DNA of 64,000 nucleotides from Stanieria cyanosphaera PCC 7437 (GCF_000317575.1 NC_019748.1:2299199-2363198), one strand, 5' to 3'. Positions 9,201-18,394 are shown, counted from the stretch's first letter. Notes: a model not told the origin generated them from the letters alone. Translations and numbers: made by a program.

Positions 9201-9452
9201 TGTTTACATCTCTAGATTAACCTTAAATAGATTAGCATTAAGTTACAAATTTGTGAGTTAATTAAGTTCTTAACTTATAATCATAATTAAAAAATTTCGA
9301 GCAGATTTTTTTTACTGCCTGCTTAAAATTTAAAGTATAAATTCCTAGTTTGGGTTGAACAAGTTCCTATGCTATTGCCAAACAAAATCATGTTATAATC
9401 TCTATTTAAATTTATTTAAGTAAGTCAGCTTAATTTCCTAACTTCAAGGAAA

Positions 9453-9559
9453 ACGGAGGAACCGATTTAGGGGCATATCTCTATAGTTTAGTTAGAGAAG
9501 AACATCTCTCAGTTCTAGCCCGTCAGCTAACTTCGTCGGCATTGAGAGGAGACTGAAGG
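9453..9559 (+). promoter_or_regulatory. candidate structured cis-regulatory RNA (riboswitch-like), copy 1 of 3, in the 5' leader of the exoD/Ca-ATPase unit
   Basis: Conserved ~107-nt element ACGGAGGAACC...AUCUCUAU[loop]UAGAGA-AGAAC-AUCUCUCA-GUUCU-AGCCCGUCAGCUAAC...GAGAGGAGACUGAAGG. A TATAAT -10 box sits at ~9391. Confidence 0.5.
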
Positions 9560-9958
9560 GAAAGCATTTTTTAAGTAATGTCTCAACCTATTTCAGTGCA
9601 TCCTAATTATTTGACTTGACTCTAAGTTAAATTTCATTTTTTGTACCGATTTTGAGGCATTGCTGATGAAATTACAGGAAATTTAGTTATTAAACTTAAA
9701 CAATCTCTGAGCAAAATTTATGTTTTGTGGCATTTTGTTGTATGTAAATCTAGAAAAACTGTGAGGTTTTTTATTTTTGGCAAACTGTCGATTGTTTAAA
9801 TAAGACTTTGTATCATTAAATCATTTCAAAATATAAGAATTCTCACTTTTAAGGCGTTTTGGTCAAGAGTATTTTTATAACTATAGATTGAATGCGGTTC
9901 AATCAAGTTGTTTGAATATTTAATACCTAGCTAAAATTGCCTTATAAAAAAAACAACA

Positions 9959-10564
9959 ATGAATCTCAGATTTTCTCAAGATATTGAATCTCTTCTTCAA
10001 AGATTGTCTGATCAGCCTCTAACTCTTAGGCAAATTTTGGCAGAAACTTCAGAACGAGGATTTAGTCTAAGTTTAGGTTTGCTGGCGTTGCCTTTTCTTT
10101 TTCCTATGCCTCCAGGATTATCTACTATTTTGGGGTTGGGTTGCTTAATTTTGGCAGTCCAAATGGCAATGGGAAGAAAATCACCCTGGCTACCTAAAAA
10201 AATAGCTCGATTTGAATTTCCTCGTAAATTCAGTCTAAAACTACTGCACAATGCCAAACGAGTAAATAAATTTTTAGGAAAAGTTGTTCGTCATCGCTGG
10301 TTGTCAATTGCAGAAAGTTCTTCTGTCTGGCGAATTAATGGCTTTTGTATTGCCTGGCTAACAATTTTGCTCATGTTGCCAATTCCTTTTACTAACCCTA
10401 TTCCTGCAAGTGCAATTTTACTTTTAGCAGTGGCTACTTTAGAAGCCGATGGTTTGTTGATTTTCTTTGGCTATGGATTAACCGTATTGAATACTTTATT
10501 TTTTGGTTTTATTGGTTATGCCCTTTGGCAAGCACCTCACTTGTTACCCAATTTATTTAGATAA
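9959..10564 (+). CDS. ExoD-family (PF06055-like) membrane protein
   Basis: 201 aa with 4-5 TM segments. The LALPFLFPMPPGLSTILGLG and PWLPKKIARF pattern is typical of ExoD. Confidence 0.65.
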   Translation: MNLRFSQDIESLLQRLSDQPLTLRQILAETSERGFSLSLGLLALPFLFPMPPGLSTILGLGCLILAVQMAMGRKSPWLPKKIARFEFPRKFSLKLLHNAKRVNKFLGKVVRHRWLSIAESSSVWRINGFCIAWLTILLMLPIPFTNPIPASAILLLAVATLEADGLLIFFGYGLTVLNTLFFGFIGYALWQAPHLLPNLFR

Positions 10565-10581
10565 ACAACTAATTACCAACT

Positions 10582-13374
10582 ATGAATGTTCCTAAAACTT
10601 CCTTCGTTGCTTCTGGTTCAATTCCTGAGATTAGTAAAGATTGGCATACTTTGAACGTTGAAGAATCCTTAGCAATTCTTACCAGTGATTTTAATCAAGG
10701 ATTAACAGCGAAGCAAATTGAGCAAAGAAAGCAAGCTTTTGGTACAAATGAACTAAAAGAATCTGGCGGTCGCAGTGCTTTAGTAATTTTATGGGAACAG
10801 TTTACCAACATCATGTTAGTGATGCTGATTGCCGTGGCAATAGTATCAGCAGTTTTAGATTTTCGTCAAGGCACATTTCCTAAAGACGCAGTAGCAATTT
10901 TTGCAATTGTGATTGTCAACGGAATTTTAGGTTATTTACAGGAAAGTCGGGCAGAAAAAGCTTTAGCAGCCCTAAAACGTCTTTCTGCTCCCCAAGTGAG
11001 AGTGATTAGGCAAGGAAAAACTACTGAAATTCCTGCCAAGGATTTAGTACCAGGGGATATCATGCTGTTAGAAGCAGGAGTACAAATCGCTGCCGATGGA
11101 CGTTTGCTAGAAGCCCAAAACCTACAAGTGCGAGAATCGACTTTAACAGGAGAAGCAGAAGCAGTCCTTAAACAAGCTGATGTTATTTTACCTCATGATA
11201 GTTCTTTAGGCGATCGCATTAATCTAGTTTTTCAGGGAACGGAAGTAGTTTTAGGCAGAGCTAAAGTAATTGTTACCAAAACAGGGATGGACACGGAAAT
11301 CGGTCATATCGCTGCTATGATACAGAGTGTAGAAACCGAACCGACTCCTCTACAACAAAGAATGACTCAACTGGGAAATGTCTTGGTAAGTAGTTCTTTG
11401 GGTTTGGTTGCTATAGTGGTGATTGGTGGTGTATTACGAACAGGATGGCAGTTTTTTGAACAATTGTTGGAAGTGTCGTTAAGTATGGCAGTTGCCGTTG
11501 TTCCAGAAGGATTACCTGCGGTAGTGACAGTTACCTTAGCCATTGGTACTCAAAAAATGGTGCGTCGCCATGCTTTAATCCGTAAACTACCAGCAGTAGA
11601 AACTTTGGGTTCGGTAACTACGATTTGTTCCGATAAAACTGGAACTTTGACTCAAAATAAAATGGTAGTGCAGAAAGTTGAGACAGGTTCTTATCACTTT
11701 AACGTAACAGGAGAAGGTTATAACCCTGTAGGAGAATTTTTAAGTAAGCAGCATCAGCAACTGCAAACCGAACCAGAAGTTCAACAACTAATGCTTGCTT
11801 GTGTAGCGTGTAACGATGCTCTACTACAACAGAAAAAAACCCCCAAACAAACAGAATGGCATATTTTAGGAGATCCAACTGAAGGCGCGTTACTCGCTTT
11901 AGCTGGAAAAGCAGGAATTTTTAAAGAAAATCTAGACAGTAAAATGCCTCGGATGGGAGAGTTTCCTTTTTCTTCTGAAAGAAAACGGATGTCTGTGATT
12001 GTTGATAACGGAGACGGAACAAGCTCTTACTCCATGTTCACCAAAGGTTCACCAGAATTAATTTTAGAATGTTGCGATCGCATTTTGCTTAAAGACCAGT
12101 TAGTTCCAATTACTGCTGAACAAAGACAGCACATTCTAACTGAAAATGACGGCATGGCAAGTAATGGTTTAAGGGTACTGGGTTTTGCTTACAAACCTCT
12201 AAGCAGTGTTCCCGACGCAGAAGATCAAGAAAATACTGAACGGGAATTAGTTTGGTTAGGTTTAATTGGAATGCTTGATGCACCTCGTCCCGAAGTTAAA
12301 GAAGCTGTCAAACGTTGTCGAAGTGCAGGAATTCGTCCTGTGATGATTACAGGAGATCATCAATTAACTGCTATGGCGATCGCATCGGAACTAGGTATTG
12401 CTAGTCCCTACGAGCAGGTATTGACAGGACAAAGATTACAGGCAATGTCTGACTTGGAATTAGAAGAAGCGGTCGATCAAGTAAGTGTGTATGCTCGTGT
12501 TTCTCCAGAACATAAACTTCGGATTGTTAAAGCACTTCAAAAACGAGGTAAGTTTGTCGCCATGACAGGGGATGGAGTCAATGATGCACCAGCCCTGAAA
12601 CAAGCTGATATCGGTATTGCCATGGGTATTACAGGAACAGATGTCAGCAAAGAAGCCAGCGATATGATTTTGTTGGATGATAATTTTGCTACGATTGTGG
12701 CTGCGACGGAAGAAGGCAGAGTAGTTTACGATAATATTCGTCGTTTTATTAAATATATTTTGGGCAGTAATATTGGTGAAGTTTTAACGATTGCTGCTGC
12801 ACCTTTGATTGGTTTAGGTGGTGTGCCACTCTCTCCTTTACAAATTCTCTGGATGAACCTAGTTACTGATGGTTTACCTGCGCTGGCATTAGCAGTAGAA
12901 CCCGCCGAACCCAACGTGATGAAACGCCCACCCTATAGTCCCAGAGAAAGTATTTTTGCTCGTGGTTTAGGACTTTATATGGTCAGAATTGGGATTATTT
13001 TTGCCATTCTTGCGATCGCACTGATGGTTTGGGCTTATAATCACGCTCAAGCTGATGGTAATCCAGAACGCTGGAAAACTATGGTTTTTACAACTTTATG
13101 TTTAGCACAAATGGGTCACGCCCTGGCAATTCGTTCTGATACCCAATTGACTATTCAAATCAATCCTTTTTCTAATCCCTATGTTTTAGGAGCAGTTACT
13201 TTAACTACCATCTTACAACTACTTCTAATCTACGTTGAACCGTTACGTAATTTCTTTAATACTCATTGGTTGAGTCCTACAGAATTAGGAATTTGTGTCG
13301 GTTTTAGTCTGTTGATGTTTGTTTGGATTGAATTTGAAAAGATTGTTTTACGTTTGTTGAAAAAGCGAGGCTAA
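10582..13374 (+). CDS. P-type (P2-type, PacL/SERCA-PMCA-like) Ca2+-transporting ATPase
   Basis: 930 aa with DKTGTLT phosphorylation motif, [28 protein letters not shown], and 10 TM segments. Confidence 0.9.
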
Positions 13375-13454
13375 ATCAATTGAATCTAAGTTTTTATTTC
13401 TGCCCTCTGCCTTTTGACAATAATTTATGTTCACAAATCAAATAGGATTGCTAT

Positions 13455-13934
13455 ATGAAAATAGTGCTTTGTCTATTGATTTCAGTAATGCTTATCTTAG
13501 GATATGGACTTCAGCCAGTGGAGGCTAAACCAGTCCAAACCGATGCAGTACTAGTCTGTTATTCTGGAGGTCAAGAAATTGTCCGCAAAACTGTTGTGGA
13601 AGGTCCTTTTGCCGATGAATACAAATTTGCTCATGAAGTTAAAGTTATTGATGAGCAAGGAGAACATCAATTAAATTTTGCTGGTGGACTATGTATGATT
13701 GATCGTGGTGCAGTTGCGCTAAAAAGCCAGCCCAAACTAAGCGATCGCCTTAGCTGTTATTCTGGAGGTAAAAAGGTGATTGATTTTGAAGTTTATGGTC
13801 GAGAAACAACTGTTGATGAATATCTAGAAGGAAGAACTTTTGTAGCCAAAGCTCGTGGCAAAGCCTTTAATTATGATTCTCTTCATCAATATTTAGTTTT
13901 TGGTGGGGGCGCGTGTTTGGGAGAAGAAACCTAG
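13455..13934 (+). CDS. secreted hypothetical protein with an internal duplication
   Basis: Signal peptide. Two CYSGG(Q/K)(E/K)(I/V) repeat units. Confidence 0.45.
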   Translation: MKIVLCLLISVMLILGYGLQPVEAKPVQTDAVLVCYSGGQEIVRKTVVEGPFADEYKFAHEVKVIDEQGEHQLNFAGGLCMIDRGAVALKSQPKLSDRLSCYSGGKKVIDFEVYGRETTVDEYLEGRTFVAKARGKAFNYDSLHQYLVFGGGACLGEET

Positions 13935-14042
13935 AAAAAAAAATAAGTAGCAAATTTGACTACCCGTTTTGAAAAAATGTGTTAAACTTCTGTTTAAATC
14001 TAGAGTAAGTTAGCCTAATCCTTGCTTAATAAAATAAGCAAG

Positions 14043-14150
14043 AGCGGGGGAACCAAATTCGGGGCGTATCTCTATCGATGTAAATAGAGAAGGACATCTC
14101 TCAGTCCTAGCCCGTCAGCTAACCTCGTCGGCTTTGAGAGGAGACTGAAC
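14043..14150 (+). promoter_or_regulatory. candidate structured cis-regulatory RNA (riboswitch-like), copy 2 of 3
   Basis: Same element as copy 1, with hairpin loop CGAUGUAA. Lies ~150 nt upstream of the small ORF at 14299. Confidence 0.5.
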
Positions 14151-14298
14151 AGATAGCACTATAATTGCTGTTTTCAGTATCCTTGGCTGCTAAATACTCT
14201 CTACATTAAGCTGTCTCGGGGTTCTGAAAATTATCTCAATTGGGATAATTCTAAATGATACCTAGGATAGCCTAGCTAGTCATTAGGAGAATCAGTAT

Positions 14299-14535
14299 AT
14301 GTTTAACATTGGCGATCGCGTTCGACATAAAGCAACTGGCGAAGTAGGTACAGTCATCGGTTATGGACATCAGTTTGTTAATGATTTTTACTTGACCACC
14401 ATCATAGTTAGATTATTGAATTCTACAGTAACCGAATCAGTAGTAGAAGATTTATATACTGAATGGCTTGGTTGGCAGAATGATACTCCACCAAAAGCCG
14501 AGCGAAATCTATCTAATTGCTTATATGCAGCCTAA
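14299..14535 (+). CDS. small hypothetical protein (78 aa) downstream of RNA element copy 2
   Basis: GDRVRHKATGEVGTV motif (DUF-like SH3/KOW-type beta motif). RBS GGAGAA upstream. Confidence 0.4.
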   Translation: MFNIGDRVRHKATGEVGTVIGYGHQFVNDFYLTTIIVRLLNSTVTESVVEDLYTEWLGWQNDTPPKAERNLSNCLYAA

Positions 14536-14584
14536 AAAGTTGCAAATATAATACGTTGATAACAAGCCTAATTCTGAAACAGAA

Positions 14585-14692
14585 ACGGGGGAACCAAATT
14601 GGGGGCTAATCTCTATAGTTATCAGTAGAGAAGGACATCTCTCAGTCCTAGCCCGTCAGCTAACCTCGTCGGCTTTGGGAGGAAACTGAAGG
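14585..14692 (+). promoter_or_regulatory. candidate structured cis-regulatory RNA (riboswitch-like), copy 3 of 3, in the 5' leader of the ABC transporter operon
   Basis: Same element. A TATAAT at 14547-14552 sits ~30 nt upstream, and the permease start codon ~85 nt downstream. Confidence 0.5.
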
Positions 14693-14775
14693 AAAATCTT
14701 TTAACAAATTATCCTCATCAGTATTCCTTAATTGTACTGGTTGAATCTATATTTTAACTAATGGGGGTAATATAA

Positions 14776-15609
14776 ATGAATTTATCAACCCTTGCTGTAG
14801 CGGGGCAAGTGGCTTGGGGACGTATCAAGCCAGTAGTTGTTCGAGACACTGTTTTACTACCAGCAGCAGGATTTTTAGGATTAATTGCTGTTTGGTGGGT
14901 GATCGCTTTATTTCGACCTGAATTAATGCCCACACCTCCACAAGCATTGATGGAGAATTTAGATTATATTTTTCATCCATTTTATCGTAGAGGACCAGGA
15001 GATCTTGGTCTTGGTTGGTTATTACTAGCTAGTTTACGACGCGTTATTATCGGTTTTTTAATTGGGGCTGCGGTAGCTATTCCTGTAGGATTTTTAATTG
15101 GGATGTCGAGAAGCGCAATGTTAGCGATCAATCCCCTAATTCAAGTTCTCAAACCCGTATCACCGTTGGCGTGGTTACCGATTGCCCTAGCTATTTTTAA
15201 TATTGCCGATCCTTCTGCTATTTTTGTTATTTTTATTACTTCCTTATGGTCAACTATTATTAATACTGCTCTAGGAGTATCTAGCGTCCCAAAAGAATAT
15301 CAAGACGTAGGACAAATGCTAGAGATGCCAGCCTGGAAAAAAATTGTCAAAATTATTCTGCCTGCTAGCCTACCTTATATTTTTACGGGCTTACGGATTA
15401 GTTTGGGGATTGCTTGGTTAGTAATCGTGGCAGTAGAAATGCTCACAGGTGGAATTGGCATTGGCTTTTTTGTCTGGGATGAATGGAGTCGTCTCAATCT
15501 TAGTTCGGTGTTTTTGGCTGTATTTGTAATTGGTATAACTGGCTTGATCCTTGACTACCTTTTGGGATTAATCCAAATCTGGGTAACCCATCGTCCTGCT
15601 AGTTCTTAG
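14776..15609 (+). CDS. ABC transporter permease, NrtB/CmpB/CynB (nitrate/sulfonate/bicarbonate/cyanate) family
   Basis: 277 aa with 6 TM segments and the EAA-like loop of binding-protein-dependent permeases. Confidence 0.85.
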   Translation: MNLSTLAVAGQVAWGRIKPVVVRDTVLLPAAGFLGLIAVWWVIALFRPELMPTPPQALMENLDYIFHPFYRRGPGDLGLGWLLLASLRRVIIGFLIGAAVAIPVGFLIGMSRSAMLAINPLIQVLKPVSPLAWLPIALAIFNIADPSAIFVIFITSLWSTIINTALGVSSVPKEYQDVGQMLEMPAWKKIVKIILPASLPYIFTGLRISLGIAWLVIVAVEMLTGGIGIGFFVWDEWSRLNLSSVFLAVFVIGITGLILDYLLGLIQIWVTHRPASS

Positions 15610-15647
15610 TTACTAGAATCAGTCAAGAGATAATTTGGAGTATTGAG

Positions 15648-17048
15648 ATGAATCAAAAACTAAAACGTAGAGCCTTTTTACAAGGCTTATCCGCAACTGC
15701 GTCGATGATGGCAATTTCTGGTTGTGCTATTAGTGGCAGTAAAGCTCCCAAAGTTTTAACCGAGGAAGCTTTAGCAGTTGAACCAATCGTCAAACCTGAA
15801 AGTTTAGAAAAACCCAATCTAACTATTGGTTATGTTCCTGTTAACGACTGCGCTCCCTTTGCTATAGCTTGGGAGAAAGGTTTTTTTCGCAAGTATGGCT
15901 TGAATGTAACTTTAAGTCGCGAATCAAGTTGGGCAAATTCTCGTGATGGCGTAATTTTTGGTCGCCTCGATGCTTCTCCTGTAGTTTCTGGGGCAGTGAT
16001 GAATGCTAGAGCGGGTGCTGAAGGCGCGCGTCATGCTCCTTTATGTGCTGCCATGACTATTCACCGTCACGGTAACGCCATGACTATGAGTAAAGAGTTA
16101 TGGGATGCAGGTATTCGTCCCTGGCAAGATTATCAAGGAGATTTGGAGCAATTTGGCAGCGATTTTGCTGGTTATTTTCAAAAAGCTCCCGAACAAAAGC
16201 GAGTTTGGGCTGTAGTACTGAGTTCTGCTATTTATGAATACTTTGCCCGTTATCTAGTAGCAGCTACTGGATTAAATCCTGACGAAATGTTTCGCATTAT
16301 TATTACTCCTCCACCCCAGATGGTTACGAATATGCGGATCGGAGCGATGCAAGCTTATATGGTGGCAGAACCTTGGAATACTCGTGCTATTTCAGGCAAT
16401 GAGGGTATTGGGTTTACTTTTGCTCAAGGAAGAGAACTTTGGCGAGGACATCCCGATCGCCTTTTGGCAGTGATGGAATCTTTTATTAACGAGAATCCTA
16501 AAACTTATCGTTCTTTAGTCAAGGCGATGATCGAAGCTTGCCAATATTGCAGTAAACCAGAAAATCTCGAAGAAGTAGCCCAAATTATCTCCGAGCGTTC
16601 TTTTACTGGGGCAAAACCTGAATTAACTAGAGCGGGAATTGTTGGTGATTATAACTATGGTGGTTTTGATGATCAGAAGCGGATTGTTAAAAGTCTAGAC
16701 ACCACTCTCTTCTTCGATCTTCCTGCTGAAGTTTCGAGTATTCCTAACGATCATTCCACCTTTTTATGGCAGTCACACAATCTTTGGTTGATGACTCAAT
16801 CGACACGTTGGCAACAAATTCGTCAATTTCCCAAGAATGCTGATCAAATTGCGCGGATAGCTTGGCGAACGGATTTATATCGAGAGATTGCTGGAGAAAT
16901 GGGCATAAAATGCCCGACAGAAGATTATAAAGTTGAGCCAGCCGAAACATTTATCGACAATAAAGCTTTCGATCCTAGCGATCCAGTTGGTTATCTCAAT
17001 AGTTTTAAGATTAGGGCGAATGCACCTGGTTTATTTTTTATGTCGTAA
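15648..17048 (+). CDS. ABC transporter substrate-binding lipoprotein, NrtA/CmpA/CynA family (Tat signal)
   Basis: RRAFLQG twin-arginine motif plus SGCA lipobox. Blocks IGYVPVNDCAPFAIAWEKGFF, SSWANSRDG and FDPSDPVGYL resemble CmpA/NrtA. Confidence 0.85.
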   Translation: MNQKLKRRAFLQGLSATASMMAISGCAISGSKAPKVLTEEALAVEPIVKPESLEKPNLTIGYVPVNDCAPFAIAWEKGFFRKYGLNVTLSRESSWANSRDGVIFGRLDASPVVSGAVMNARAGAEGARHAPLCAAMTIHRHGNAMTMSKELWDAGIRPWQDYQGDLEQFGSDFAGYFQKAPEQKRVWAVVLSSAIYEYFARYLVAATGLNPDEMFRIIITPPPQMVTNMRIGAMQAYMVAEPWNTRAISGNEGIGFTFAQGRELWRGHPDRLLAVMESFINENPKTYRSLVKAMIEACQYCSKPENLEEVAQIISERSFTGAKPELTRAGIVGDYNYGGFDDQKRIVKSLDTTLFFDLPAEVSSIPNDHSTFLWQSHNLWLMTQSTRWQQIRQFPKNADQIARIAWRTDLYREIAGEMGIKCPTEDYKVEPAETFIDNKAFDPSDPVGYLNSFKIRANAPGLFFMS

Positions 17049-17090
17049 ATTTTTTGTTGAAAAATATTTTAATTTTTAAAGGAGTTAACT

Positions 17091-17915
17091 ATGTTTTATT
17101 CCAGCACTTTTACTAGTAATACCTCTACTAATTACAATTCAGAAGAATTTTTAGTGATTGAAAATCTAGTTAAATCTTTTCCTCAACCTGATGGTAGTCG
17201 GACGGTAATTCTTGATGGAATTAATTTAACGATTGGTGCAGAAGAATATATTTCCGTAATTGGTCACTCTGGTTGCGGTAAATCGACTTTATTGAGAATA
17301 ATTGCTGGTTTAGATAAACCAACCTCTGGAATGGTAACTCTAGAAGGAAAAGAAATTCGTAAGCCTGGTGCAGAAAGGATGATGGTTTTTCAAAGCTATG
17401 CCCTACTACCTTGGCTAACTGTACGAGAAAATATTCGTTTGGCAGTAGATGAAGTCTTAAAAAAAGCTACGCGTGCCGAAAAAGTCAGTTTAGTTAACGA
17501 GCATATTGCAATGGTTAATTTAACTGCTGCTGCCGATAAATATCCTGATGAACTTTCTGGGGGGATGAAACAAAGGGTAGGAATTGCCCGTGCTTTGATT
17601 ACTCGCCCGAAAATGTTACTGATGGATGAACCATTTGGAGCATTAGACGCTTTAACTAAAAGGAAACTGCAAGCACAAGTACTAGAAATTTGGGAAAATC
17701 ATCGACAAGCAGTCATGATGATCACCCACGATGTAGACGAAGCAATTTATATGTCCGATCGCATTATTTTAATGACTAATGGTCCGGAAGCAAAAATTGG
17801 AGAAATTATTACTGTACCTTTTGACCATCCCCGCGATCGCGCCTCGCTACAAAATTCTCAAGAATATTATGAGATTAGAAAAAAAGCTTTAGATTTTCTG
17901 GAACACTATAGTTAA
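17091..17915 (+). CDS. ABC transporter ATP-binding protein (NrtD/CmpD/CynD-like, short form)
   Basis: Walker A GHSGCGKST, signature LSGGMKQRV, Walker B LLMDEPFGALD. Confidence 0.9.
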   Translation: MFYSSTFTSNTSTNYNSEEFLVIENLVKSFPQPDGSRTVILDGINLTIGAEEYISVIGHSGCGKSTLLRIIAGLDKPTSGMVTLEGKEIRKPGAERMMVFQSYALLPWLTVRENIRLAVDEVLKKATRAEKVSLVNEHIAMVNLTAAADKYPDELSGGMKQRVGIARALITRPKMLLMDEPFGALDALTKRKLQAQVLEIWENHRQAVMMITHDVDEAIYMSDRIILMTNGPEAKIGEIITVPFDHPRDRASLQNSQEYYEIRKKALDFLEHYS

Positions 17916-17941: not shown

Positions 17942-18394
17942 GTGACCAAAATGAGCGAACAAGATCCTTTTGACTTAAATCGTTTCATCAACACACAAAA
18001 CCAAGTTTTCGACCGCGTTTTGGCAGAGTTAAAAAATGGTCGCAAGCGATCGCATTGGATGTGGTACACATTTCCTCAGCTTGACGGATTAGCTCAAAGT
18101 ACAACTTCAAAATATTACGCCATAAAAAGCCCCGAAGAAGCGATCGCCTATCTTAATCATCCAGTTTTAGGAGCGAGAATTTTGGAATGTGCAAATACGA
18201 TTGTTGCCATTGAAGGAAAAACAGTTTCAGAAATCTTTGGTTATCCTGATGATCTCAAACTTAAATCGTCTATGACATTATTTTCTGAAGTTTCCGCAGA
18301 GCCTATATTTATTCGTGTCCTTGATCGGTATTTTCATGGCGATCGAGATGATAGAACACTTCAACTATTAAAAAAGCTCAAAAATACAAAATAA
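17942..18394 (+). CDS. DUF1810-family protein
   Basis: LNRFINTQN...GRKRSHWMWYTFPQ pattern characteristic of DUF1810. Confidence 0.65.
   Translation: MTKMSEQDPFDLNRFINTQNQVFDRVLAELKNGRKRSHWMWYTFPQLDGLAQSTTSKYYAIKSPEEAIAYLNHPVLGARILECANTIVAIEGKTVSEIFGYPDDLKLKSSMTLFSEVSAEPIFIRVLDRYFHGDRDDRTLQLLKKLKNTK

Follow-up and report, generated by a model that had tools for sequence, protein, structure and literature searches.

Genes and Features of the Locus

We analysed a stretch of 64,000 nt from Stanieria cyanosphaera PCC 7437, which as a whole is called the window here. An earlier note, made from the sequence alone, had described the same RNA element in front of two gene sets, one encoding an ExoD-like membrane protein and a P-type ATPase and the other an ATP-binding cassette (ABC) system of permease, substrate-binding protein (SBP) and ATPase. 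The shared element was confirmed by searching the whole window with Rfam cmscan, which returned three matches (73.5-89.2 bits) to RF00379, the cyclic di-AMP (c-di-AMP) riboswitch or ydaO/yuaA leader. All three lie on the + strand within 5.3 kb and score above the RF00379 gathering score of 38 bits:

9417-9556, + strand: c-di-AMP riboswitch aptamer copy 1, ExoD leader (RF00379, 73.5 bits, E 3.6e-15)
14002-14148, + strand: c-di-AMP riboswitch aptamer copy 2, leader of a 78-aa open reading frame (ORF) (RF00379, 79.6 bits, E 7e-17)
14555-14689, + strand: c-di-AMP riboswitch aptamer copy 3, ABC operon leader (RF00379, 89.2 bits, E 1.5e-19)

The genes that accompany these copies are listed next, and their Pfam and NCBIfam matches agree with the gene content already noted (ExoD, P-ATPase, permease, SBP, ATPase and DUF1810):

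9959-10564, + strand: ExoD-family membrane protein, 201 aa (PF06055, E 2.5e-59)
10582-13374, + strand: 930-aa P2A-type cation ATPase and probable Ca2+ exporter (five P2-ATPase Pfam domains; 18 nt after ExoD)
13455-13934, + strand: 159-aa signal-peptide protein with an internal repeat (CYSGG...), ending the first unit after an 80-nt gap behind the ATPase
14299-14535, + strand: 78-aa orphan protein Sta7437_2061, in its own unit behind copy 2
14776-15609, + strand: NrtB-type ABC permease, 277 aa (TIGR01183 ntrB, 231.6 bits against a cut-off of 209)
15648-17048, + strand: NrtA/CmpA-superfamily SBP, a twin-arginine (Tat) signal lipoprotein (lipobox Cys), 466 aa (NMT1_2, E 2.8e-66)
17091-17915, + strand: NrtD-type ABC ATPase, 274 aa (TIGR01184 ntrCD, 356.7 bits against a cut-off of 291.8)
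17942-18394, + strand: DUF1810 gene, co-directional and adjoining the ABC genes (PF08837, E 2e-57)

Missing from the earlier description were the 78-aa ORF behind copy 2, the 159-aa ORF that ends the first unit, and copy 1 itself, which lies outside the region (9959-17915) described at that time.

Riboswitch Class and Aptamer Fold

When scored with R1, a covariance model built in this analysis from the three window copies, copy 1 (9417-9556) reaches 160 bits, and the mean column identity among the three copies is 85%. The repeated leader is, far beyond chance, a member of the known c-di-AMP riboswitch class, and c-di-AMP binding is predicted for it. The aptamer fold is supported by covariation: among 95 distinct cyanobacterial copies, in an alignment that was fitted to the covariance model and so favours the structure, 94.2% of the cells in the nested helices are paired as against 31-53% in slid-partner controls, and compensatory (double) changes are found in 18 of the 26 pairs. 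Each of the three window copies has a pseudoknot between the loop (A)UCUCUCA and the tail UGAGAGG (UGGGAGG in copy 3). In 32 leaders this pseudoknot is 94.6% paired and varies little, so that its support comes mostly from conservation.

Candidate promoter elements precede each copy, all of them read directly from the nucleotides:

9391-9399, + strand: TGTTATAAT, possible extended -10 promoter of unit 1
13991-13999, + strand: TGTTTAAAT, -10-like element before copy 2
14547-14552, + strand: TATAAT, -10-like element before copy 3

We infer a separate promoter for each of the three units, which these elements would provide; a consensus promoter scan made no call beside any of the three riboswitches, the three -10-like elements included.

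Conservation of the Riboswitch Ahead of the ABC Operon

A profile of the SBP made from 18 orthologues found 557 loci in contigs representing one genome per species, and the best 80 of the 557 were examined. Nearly all of these are labelled cyanobacteria, from many orders, with 71-87% SBP identity. R1, which was run on both the ABC and the ExoD loci, found a riboswitch in the 400 nt before the permease in 76 of the 80; in L002 and L006 the order is riboswitch, 78-aa homologue, permease, and L001 is cut by the contig end. The riboswitch is therefore carried by 78 of the 79 assessable orthologous ABC operons, across many cyanobacterial orders, and the lone assessable operon in which neither R1 nor Rfam found one upstream is that of a Pseudanabaenaceae metagenome-assembled genome (MAG; L060, 1-2262). 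Checked on 11 sampled loci, Rfam's own model confirmed 18 of 20 R1 calls, and an Rfam search of the R1-negative loci L060, L081, L085, L087 and L089 found no riboswitch. The check suggested in the earlier note, whether orthologous operons carry the same leader, comes out strongly positive for the ABC operon and only weakly so for ExoD, whose survey is given below.

Two loci from MAGs labelled Candidatus Gracilibacteria and Tatlockia (L053, L069) also have the ABC operon and the riboswitch that goes with it (SBP identity 73%), and are probably mis-binned cyanobacterial contigs. L012 (12542-12618) and L016 (570-646, - strand) have matches to the CyVA-1 small RNA (RF02965) no more than a few kb away from the ABC operon.

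A Conserved 3′ Extension as Proposed Expression Platform

The cyanobacterial leaders (the three window copies and loci L002-L080) have in common a 3′ extension (9548-9603, 14140-14182 and 14681-14727 in the window) that reaches past the end of the Rfam model. Its first element is helix H1, formed by the aptamer 3′ tail GGAGACUGA with a downstream UCAGU-N-UCC. The downstream partners, placed by pairing, are:

9593-9603, + strand: UCAGUGCAUCC, H1 partner of the copy-1 tail GGAGACUGA
14174-14182, + strand: UCAGUAUCC, H1 partner of the copy-2 tail
14718-14727, + strand: UCAGUAUUCC, H1 partner of the copy-3 tail

All three window copies are followed by H1, which is more than 90% paired in 32 aligned cyanobacterial ABC-operon leaders, and the minimum free energy fold of 14127-14270 (z-score -3.9) contains the copy-2 H1 hairpin. 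H1 encloses a second hairpin, H2, in which 8 of the 9 pairs show compensatory changes. Downstream of H1/H2, most ABC leaders have a sequence-conserved GGUACUGCUC...GUACC (H3) and then a Shine-Dalgarno (SD) sequence about 8 nt before the start codon. The distance from aptamer to start is 72-126 nt across 62 leaders, and in copy 3 the permease start codon lies 86 nt past the aptamer end. The inner half of H1 and the pseudoknot draw on the same residues, in partial overlap, and blocking the pseudoknot residues in silico lowered SD accessibility in 31 of the 62 leaders and raised it in 7. The platform helices were set by eye and their pairs then counted; RNAalifold on MAFFT leader alignments gave almost no platform structure, the alignments being gappy and of mixed register. 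From this modelling we infer that the conserved 3′ extension would act on translation initiation.

The ExoD/P-Type ATPase Unit and the Small Proteins

ExoD matches PF06055 at full length (profile positions 5-179 of 180) with 200.1 bits against a gathering score of 23.8, and the protein is 100% identical to the ExoD of Stanieria cyanosphaera PCC 7437. The best solved relatives of the ATPase are LMCA1 (612 bits), SPCA1 (590) and SERCA (532). It carries the phosphorylation motif CSDKTGTLT and has the Ca2+-site residues of SERCA in PEGLP (M4), NIGE (M5) and NLVTD (M6), the lone exception being a Gln in M8 at the equivalent of SERCA E908. PacL is the cyanobacterial Ca2+-ATPase grouped with SERCA, SPCA and LMCA1. 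The window enzyme is likely a Ca2+ exporter, with Ca2+ specificity read from these residues only.

Between copy 1 and ExoD, about 270 nt before the latter, lies a very short reading frame with a strong SD at a spacing of 8 nt:

GAGG 9654-9657, ATG 9666 to TAG 9686, + strand: SD GAGG and 6-codon mini-ORF MKLQEI, read from the sequence and conserved in relatives

The mini-ORF recurs with six codons in L086 (1977-2009), L088 (312-344) and L090 (2247-2279) and with four in L083 (4813-4843). Among these four loci and the window, its length and stop position are kept and its codons and flanks have diverged. It sits about 86-97 nt past the aptamer in the ExoD leaders, which is where the permease start codon sits in the ABC leaders, and the platform's SD and start codon in the ExoD leader are predicted to serve the mini-ORF and not ExoD.

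The 159-aa protein has no Pfam or NCBIfam family, and for the 78-aa and 159-aa pair there were only sub-threshold YccV/SH3-like hints. An exhaustive HMMER search of 1.84 billion representatives returned 5 relatives of the 159-aa protein, which is lineage-restricted. Homologues follow the ATPase of the ABC operon in two Waterburya/Pleurocapsa MAGs (L005 8366-8845, L007 7153-7635), so that the gene travels with the riboswitch cluster, behind the P-ATPase here and behind the ABC operon there.

The 78-aa protein likewise matched no family in Pfam or NCBIfam and has five relatives, all from Stanieria or close kin; in L002, L004 and L006 the homologue is preceded by a c-di-AMP riboswitch. In the Pleurocapsales MAGs L005 (4664-4786) and L007 (3565-3687), a 40-aa ORF that opens like the 78-aa protein (MFNLKD...) lies behind the first of two tandem riboswitches. 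The resemblance suggests that these ORFs may be decaying copies of the 78-aa gene with the riboswitch retained.

The ABC Importer

By their family assignments, the permease, SBP and ATPase constitute a NitT/TauT-type ABC importer. The system's sole ATPase is 274 aa long, with no NrtC-type extension or regulatory domain, and the CynABD-like layout with a single short ATPase proposed before is what we find. The SBP is 71-95% identical across cyanobacteria. Its scores with the C-terminal regulatory domains (CRD) of CmpC and NrtC (226-235 bits) exceed those with NrtA (170.6) and CmpA (169.5), and its identity to NrtA and to the NrtC-CRD paralogues is only about 30-35%.

The nitrate site of the CmpC-CRD consists of W319, H408, G452 and K481, and at the specificity position K481 corresponds to NrtA K269 and to CmpA E270 (PMC13287603). 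Transferred to the SBP through alignment with the CmpC-CRD, these residues become W95, Y196 (for His), A240 (for Gly) and R271 (for Lys), and the four are invariant in the 18 orthologues. Only W95 of the NrtA nitrate signature is kept in these 18, with H, G and K replaced by Y196, A240 and R271. The CmpABCD signature is likewise lacking, with Arg271 at the position of CmpA E270 and no CmpC-type regulatory-domain ATPase in the operon. As judged from these pocket residues, the SBP is a separate NrtA/CmpA paralogue that lacks both the nitrate and the bicarbonate signature. The positive charge kept at R271 suggests an anionic ligand, and the substrate is probably an anion or anionic solute other than nitrate and bicarbonate.

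The DUF1810 gene was correctly placed after the ABC operon in the earlier note, but it is absent from all 80 orthologous ABC loci (0/80) and we rejected it as an operon member. Elsewhere in the window, two adjacent tRNA genes on the + strand (1607-1688 and 1720-1791) are unrelated to the riboswitch units.

Further Riboswitch Copies and a Probable Wider Regulon

In a number of loci an extra riboswitch copy stands near the ABC operon. It precedes an ArsB/CitMHS permease of about 449 aa in L004, L007, L031, L036 and L064 (L075 holds a truncated 134-aa remnant behind its extra copy, and the gene is also found in L099), a GT4 glycosyltransferase resembling sucrose-phosphate synthase in L011 and L012, a USP-domain protein in L012, L048, L059, L061, L071 and L077, and the 78-aa gene in L004. 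The extra-copy regions beside the ABC operon are:

L004 5291-7405
L007 7796-9792
L011 409-1848
L012 2476-4106 and 8320-9328
L031 2755-4680
L059 8379-9394
L064 2624-4515

Some of the long extra-copy leaders hold short upstream ORFs of 16-52 codons.

ExoD directly follows the ABC operon in L013, L041, L058 and L070. Among the 83 ExoD loci, the neighbours include a YegS/DAGK-like lipid kinase in 36 and an orthologous P2A ATPase in 12 (many of L092-L156; L085 5001-9527), which suggests that ExoD, lipid kinase and P2A ATPase form a functional module independent of the riboswitch.

The c-di-AMP riboswitch of Synechocystis regulates slr0753, whose product is a putative transporter for chloride efflux (PMC10117731). 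When slr1875, an ExoD homologue, is lost along with sll1581, exopolysaccharide and NaCl tolerance are reduced (PMC3566033). A passage of PMC5986932 that cites Nelson 2013 derives from riboswitch regulons a role of c-di-AMP in osmoprotectant synthesis and transport. The targets seen here look like a cyanobacterial c-di-AMP regulon for osmotic and ionic stress.

Proposed Regulation and Alternatives

We consider it probable that the three units, each starting with a c-di-AMP riboswitch, share c-di-AMP as their signal and are under OFF control as part of an osmotic/ionic-stress regulon. The putative regulon of the earlier note stands in that the ExoD/P-ATPase and ABC units share a class of cis-regulatory RNA and plausibly one signal, but that signal is not Ca2+ or bicarbonate. 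By analogy with the class, c-di-AMP would stabilise the aptamer including the pseudoknot (loop CUCUCA with tail UGAGAG), and the ligand-bound aptamer would turn the downstream genes OFF. Members of the class are described as OFF switches (for ydaO, a genetic OFF switch in the words of Nelson 2013 as cited in PMC12789804), and we therefore propose that the genes would be expressed when c-di-AMP is low. In vivo OFF behaviour is reported from Synechococcus PCC 7002 only (PMC12789804). The tail GGAGACUGA would pair with UCAGU..UCC (H1), partly overlapping the pseudoknot residues, and the platform would end at an SD and start codon about 86-100 nt past the aptamer, gating translation initiation. 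The regulated set would be ExoD with the P2A Ca2+-type pump and the 159-aa secreted protein, the 78-aa orphan, and the ABC importer.

Several of our results count against this reading. Copy 1 is separated from ExoD by about 400 nt, and a riboswitch lies directly upstream of ExoD in only 4 of 76 loci (L083 from Geminocystis herdmanii, L086, L088 and L090). The ATPase is below the NCBIfam equivalog cut-offs for the PMR1 type (722.9 against 798.3) and the SERCA type (670.6 against 703.4), and is barely above that for the PMCA type (509.9 against 507.05). In H1 and H3 the sequence is conserved and covaries little, which leaves their pairing unproven. On blocking the pseudoknot the mean SD unpaired probability went from 0.26 to 0.18, a weak effect, and support for translational OFF control is weak because the leader sequences are related. 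Finally, the consensus scan found no canonical intrinsic terminator after any of the three copies, so that the usual mechanism of this riboswitch class, which in Firmicutes works through an intrinsic terminator, is not evident.

That last point bears on Bacillus-like premature termination or attenuation, in which the composite H1/H2 hairpin and a U-rich stretch would form a non-canonical terminator, with no occlusion of the ribosome binding site; we lean against this alternative while granting it a real chance. In Synechococcus PCC 7002, whose ABC genes we take by assumption as orthologues of the window operon, the riboswitch is upstream of the ABC genes, the leader is transcribed and the ABC genes are silent (PMC12789804), as attenuation would have it, but loss of untranslated mRNA could also give this pattern. 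The long H1/H2 hairpin is followed by UCCUUAAUU in copy 3 or UCCUAAUUAUUU in copy 1, though these U-tracts are short and interrupted and the scan called no terminator. The description of the ydaO class as an OFF switch, cited above, is in keeping with termination as well. On the other hand, the platform has a closely conserved length up to the start codon and an SD at its end, which argues for translational coupling.

It is also conceivable, though we think it improbable, that the ABC operon is the only true and ancient target, and that the ExoD copy is a recent lineage-specific duplication which may regulate the mini-ORF alone or nothing, leaving ExoD and the P-ATPase outside the functional regulon. 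The ExoD survey covered 83 distinct loci (3 named genomes and 80 metagenome contigs), of which the 76 counted above had enough upstream sequence. Besides the low count and the 400 nt spacing, it showed ExoD kept together with the P-ATPase and no riboswitch at the ExoD locus of either Rippkaea PCC 8801 (ExoD, ATPase) or Coleofasciculus (ExoD, DAGK-like gene, ATPase), and the link between ExoD and the riboswitch is confined to few lineages. Against this, copy 1 scores 73.5 bits with its pseudoknot and H1 partner intact, and the order of riboswitch, mini-ORF and ExoD is kept in L083, L086, L088 and L090 despite diverged spacers. In addition, ExoD, the orthologous ATPase and the ArsB-like permease recur in riboswitch-headed clusters, including L099 and L130, where the riboswitch is further upstream of ExoD and heads a longer cluster, and the four loci where ExoD follows the ABC operon.

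The suggestion that the leader or the units answer a shared ion or anion such as Ca2+ or bicarbonate, joining a CmpA-like SBP with a Ca2+ pump, did not hold up and is extremely unlikely: the SBP does fall within the NrtA/CmpA superfamily and the P-ATPase is of the Ca2+ type, but the leader RNA is a high-scoring c-di-AMP aptamer, the SBP has Arg271 in place of the bicarbonate-specific Glu of CmpA and Tyr196 in place of the nitrate-site His (PMC13287603), and it is nearer to the NrtC/CmpC regulatory domains than to CmpA.

With c-di-AMP as the shared signal, a more specific picture can be drawn, which taken as a whole is tentative and rather doubtful. The near-universal cyanobacterial target of these riboswitches would be an ABC importer with a new specificity, for an anion or anionic osmolyte not transported by any characterised member of the NrtA family (W95, Y196, A240 and R271 being invariant across orders), the terminator-less platform would be specific to cyanobacteria and in some leaders would gate a mini-ORF of 4-6 codons in place of the structural gene, and in Stanieria c-di-AMP would also set the level of a Ca2+ pump.

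Relation to Known Systems and Significance

The window leaders share with those of B. subtilis ydaO/kimA and ktrAB and B. thuringiensis kdpFABC (PMC6488665) the Rfam family, the nested helices, the pseudoknot and the 5′-leader position, and the class likewise heads ion and osmolyte transporter genes including a P-type ATPase. Unlike the Bacillus leaders, those in the window have no canonical terminator and carry the cyanobacteria-specific H1/H2/H3 extension that ends at the SD and start codon. The targets also differ, being an NrtA-like ABC importer, ExoD, a Ca2+-type P2A pump and a small orphan protein in place of K+ uptake systems.

Among cyanobacteria, ydaO has been linked to nrtB (K15577) across 202 genomes (PMC12873609), and this, together with Synechococcus PCC 7002 (PMC12789804), is the same association as that of the window's ABC-operon copy. 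The link between riboswitch and ABC operon is thus already published, and the window is a local example of a known regulatory system. It differs from reported cyanobacterial c-di-AMP riboswitches in having three copies within 5.3 kb, and the putative-transporter annotation of slr0753 (PMC10117731) resembles the ArsB/CitMHS permease behind the extra copies. The ExoD/P2A-ATPase and 78-aa links, the platform and the mini-ORF were not found in the literature, in a search that excluded the original ydaO gene lists (Nelson 2013, Block 2010), where they may already be listed.

The importer itself is related to NrtABCD, CmpABCD and CynABD in that its permease and ATPase pass the ntrB and ntrCD cut-offs and its SBP is a Tat lipoprotein of the same fold; with CynABD the match is one of layout only, in the one short ATPase. 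It departs from NrtABCD and CmpABCD in lacking a regulatory-domain subunit of the NrtC/CmpC kind and in the SBP changes H to Y196, G to A240 and K to R271, with no CmpA Glu. The window operon lies behind a c-di-AMP riboswitch, unlike the cmp operon, whose activator is CmpR (PMC13287603). The ATPase shares with LMCA1, SPCA1 and SERCA the P2A architecture, DKTGT and the M4/M5/M6 site residues. It differs at SERCA E908, which is Gln here and Arg in LMCA1, and its gene stands in an operon with ExoD.

The known picture of the c-di-AMP riboswitch class is unchanged by these findings. What they add is c-di-AMP as the named signal for three adjacent operons, with a link between riboswitch and ABC operon that holds across cyanobacterial orders. 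The terminator-less platform and the mini-ORF offer a handle on how these riboswitches act in cyanobacteria, which are not known to have Rho. The identity of the ABC substrate would tell what cyanobacteria import at low c-di-AMP. The ExoD/Ca2+-pump unit may tie c-di-AMP to exopolysaccharide-related salt tolerance and to Ca2+ homeostasis and, if true, a Ca2+ pump under a riboswitch would couple c-di-AMP to Ca2+ signalling in Stanieria.

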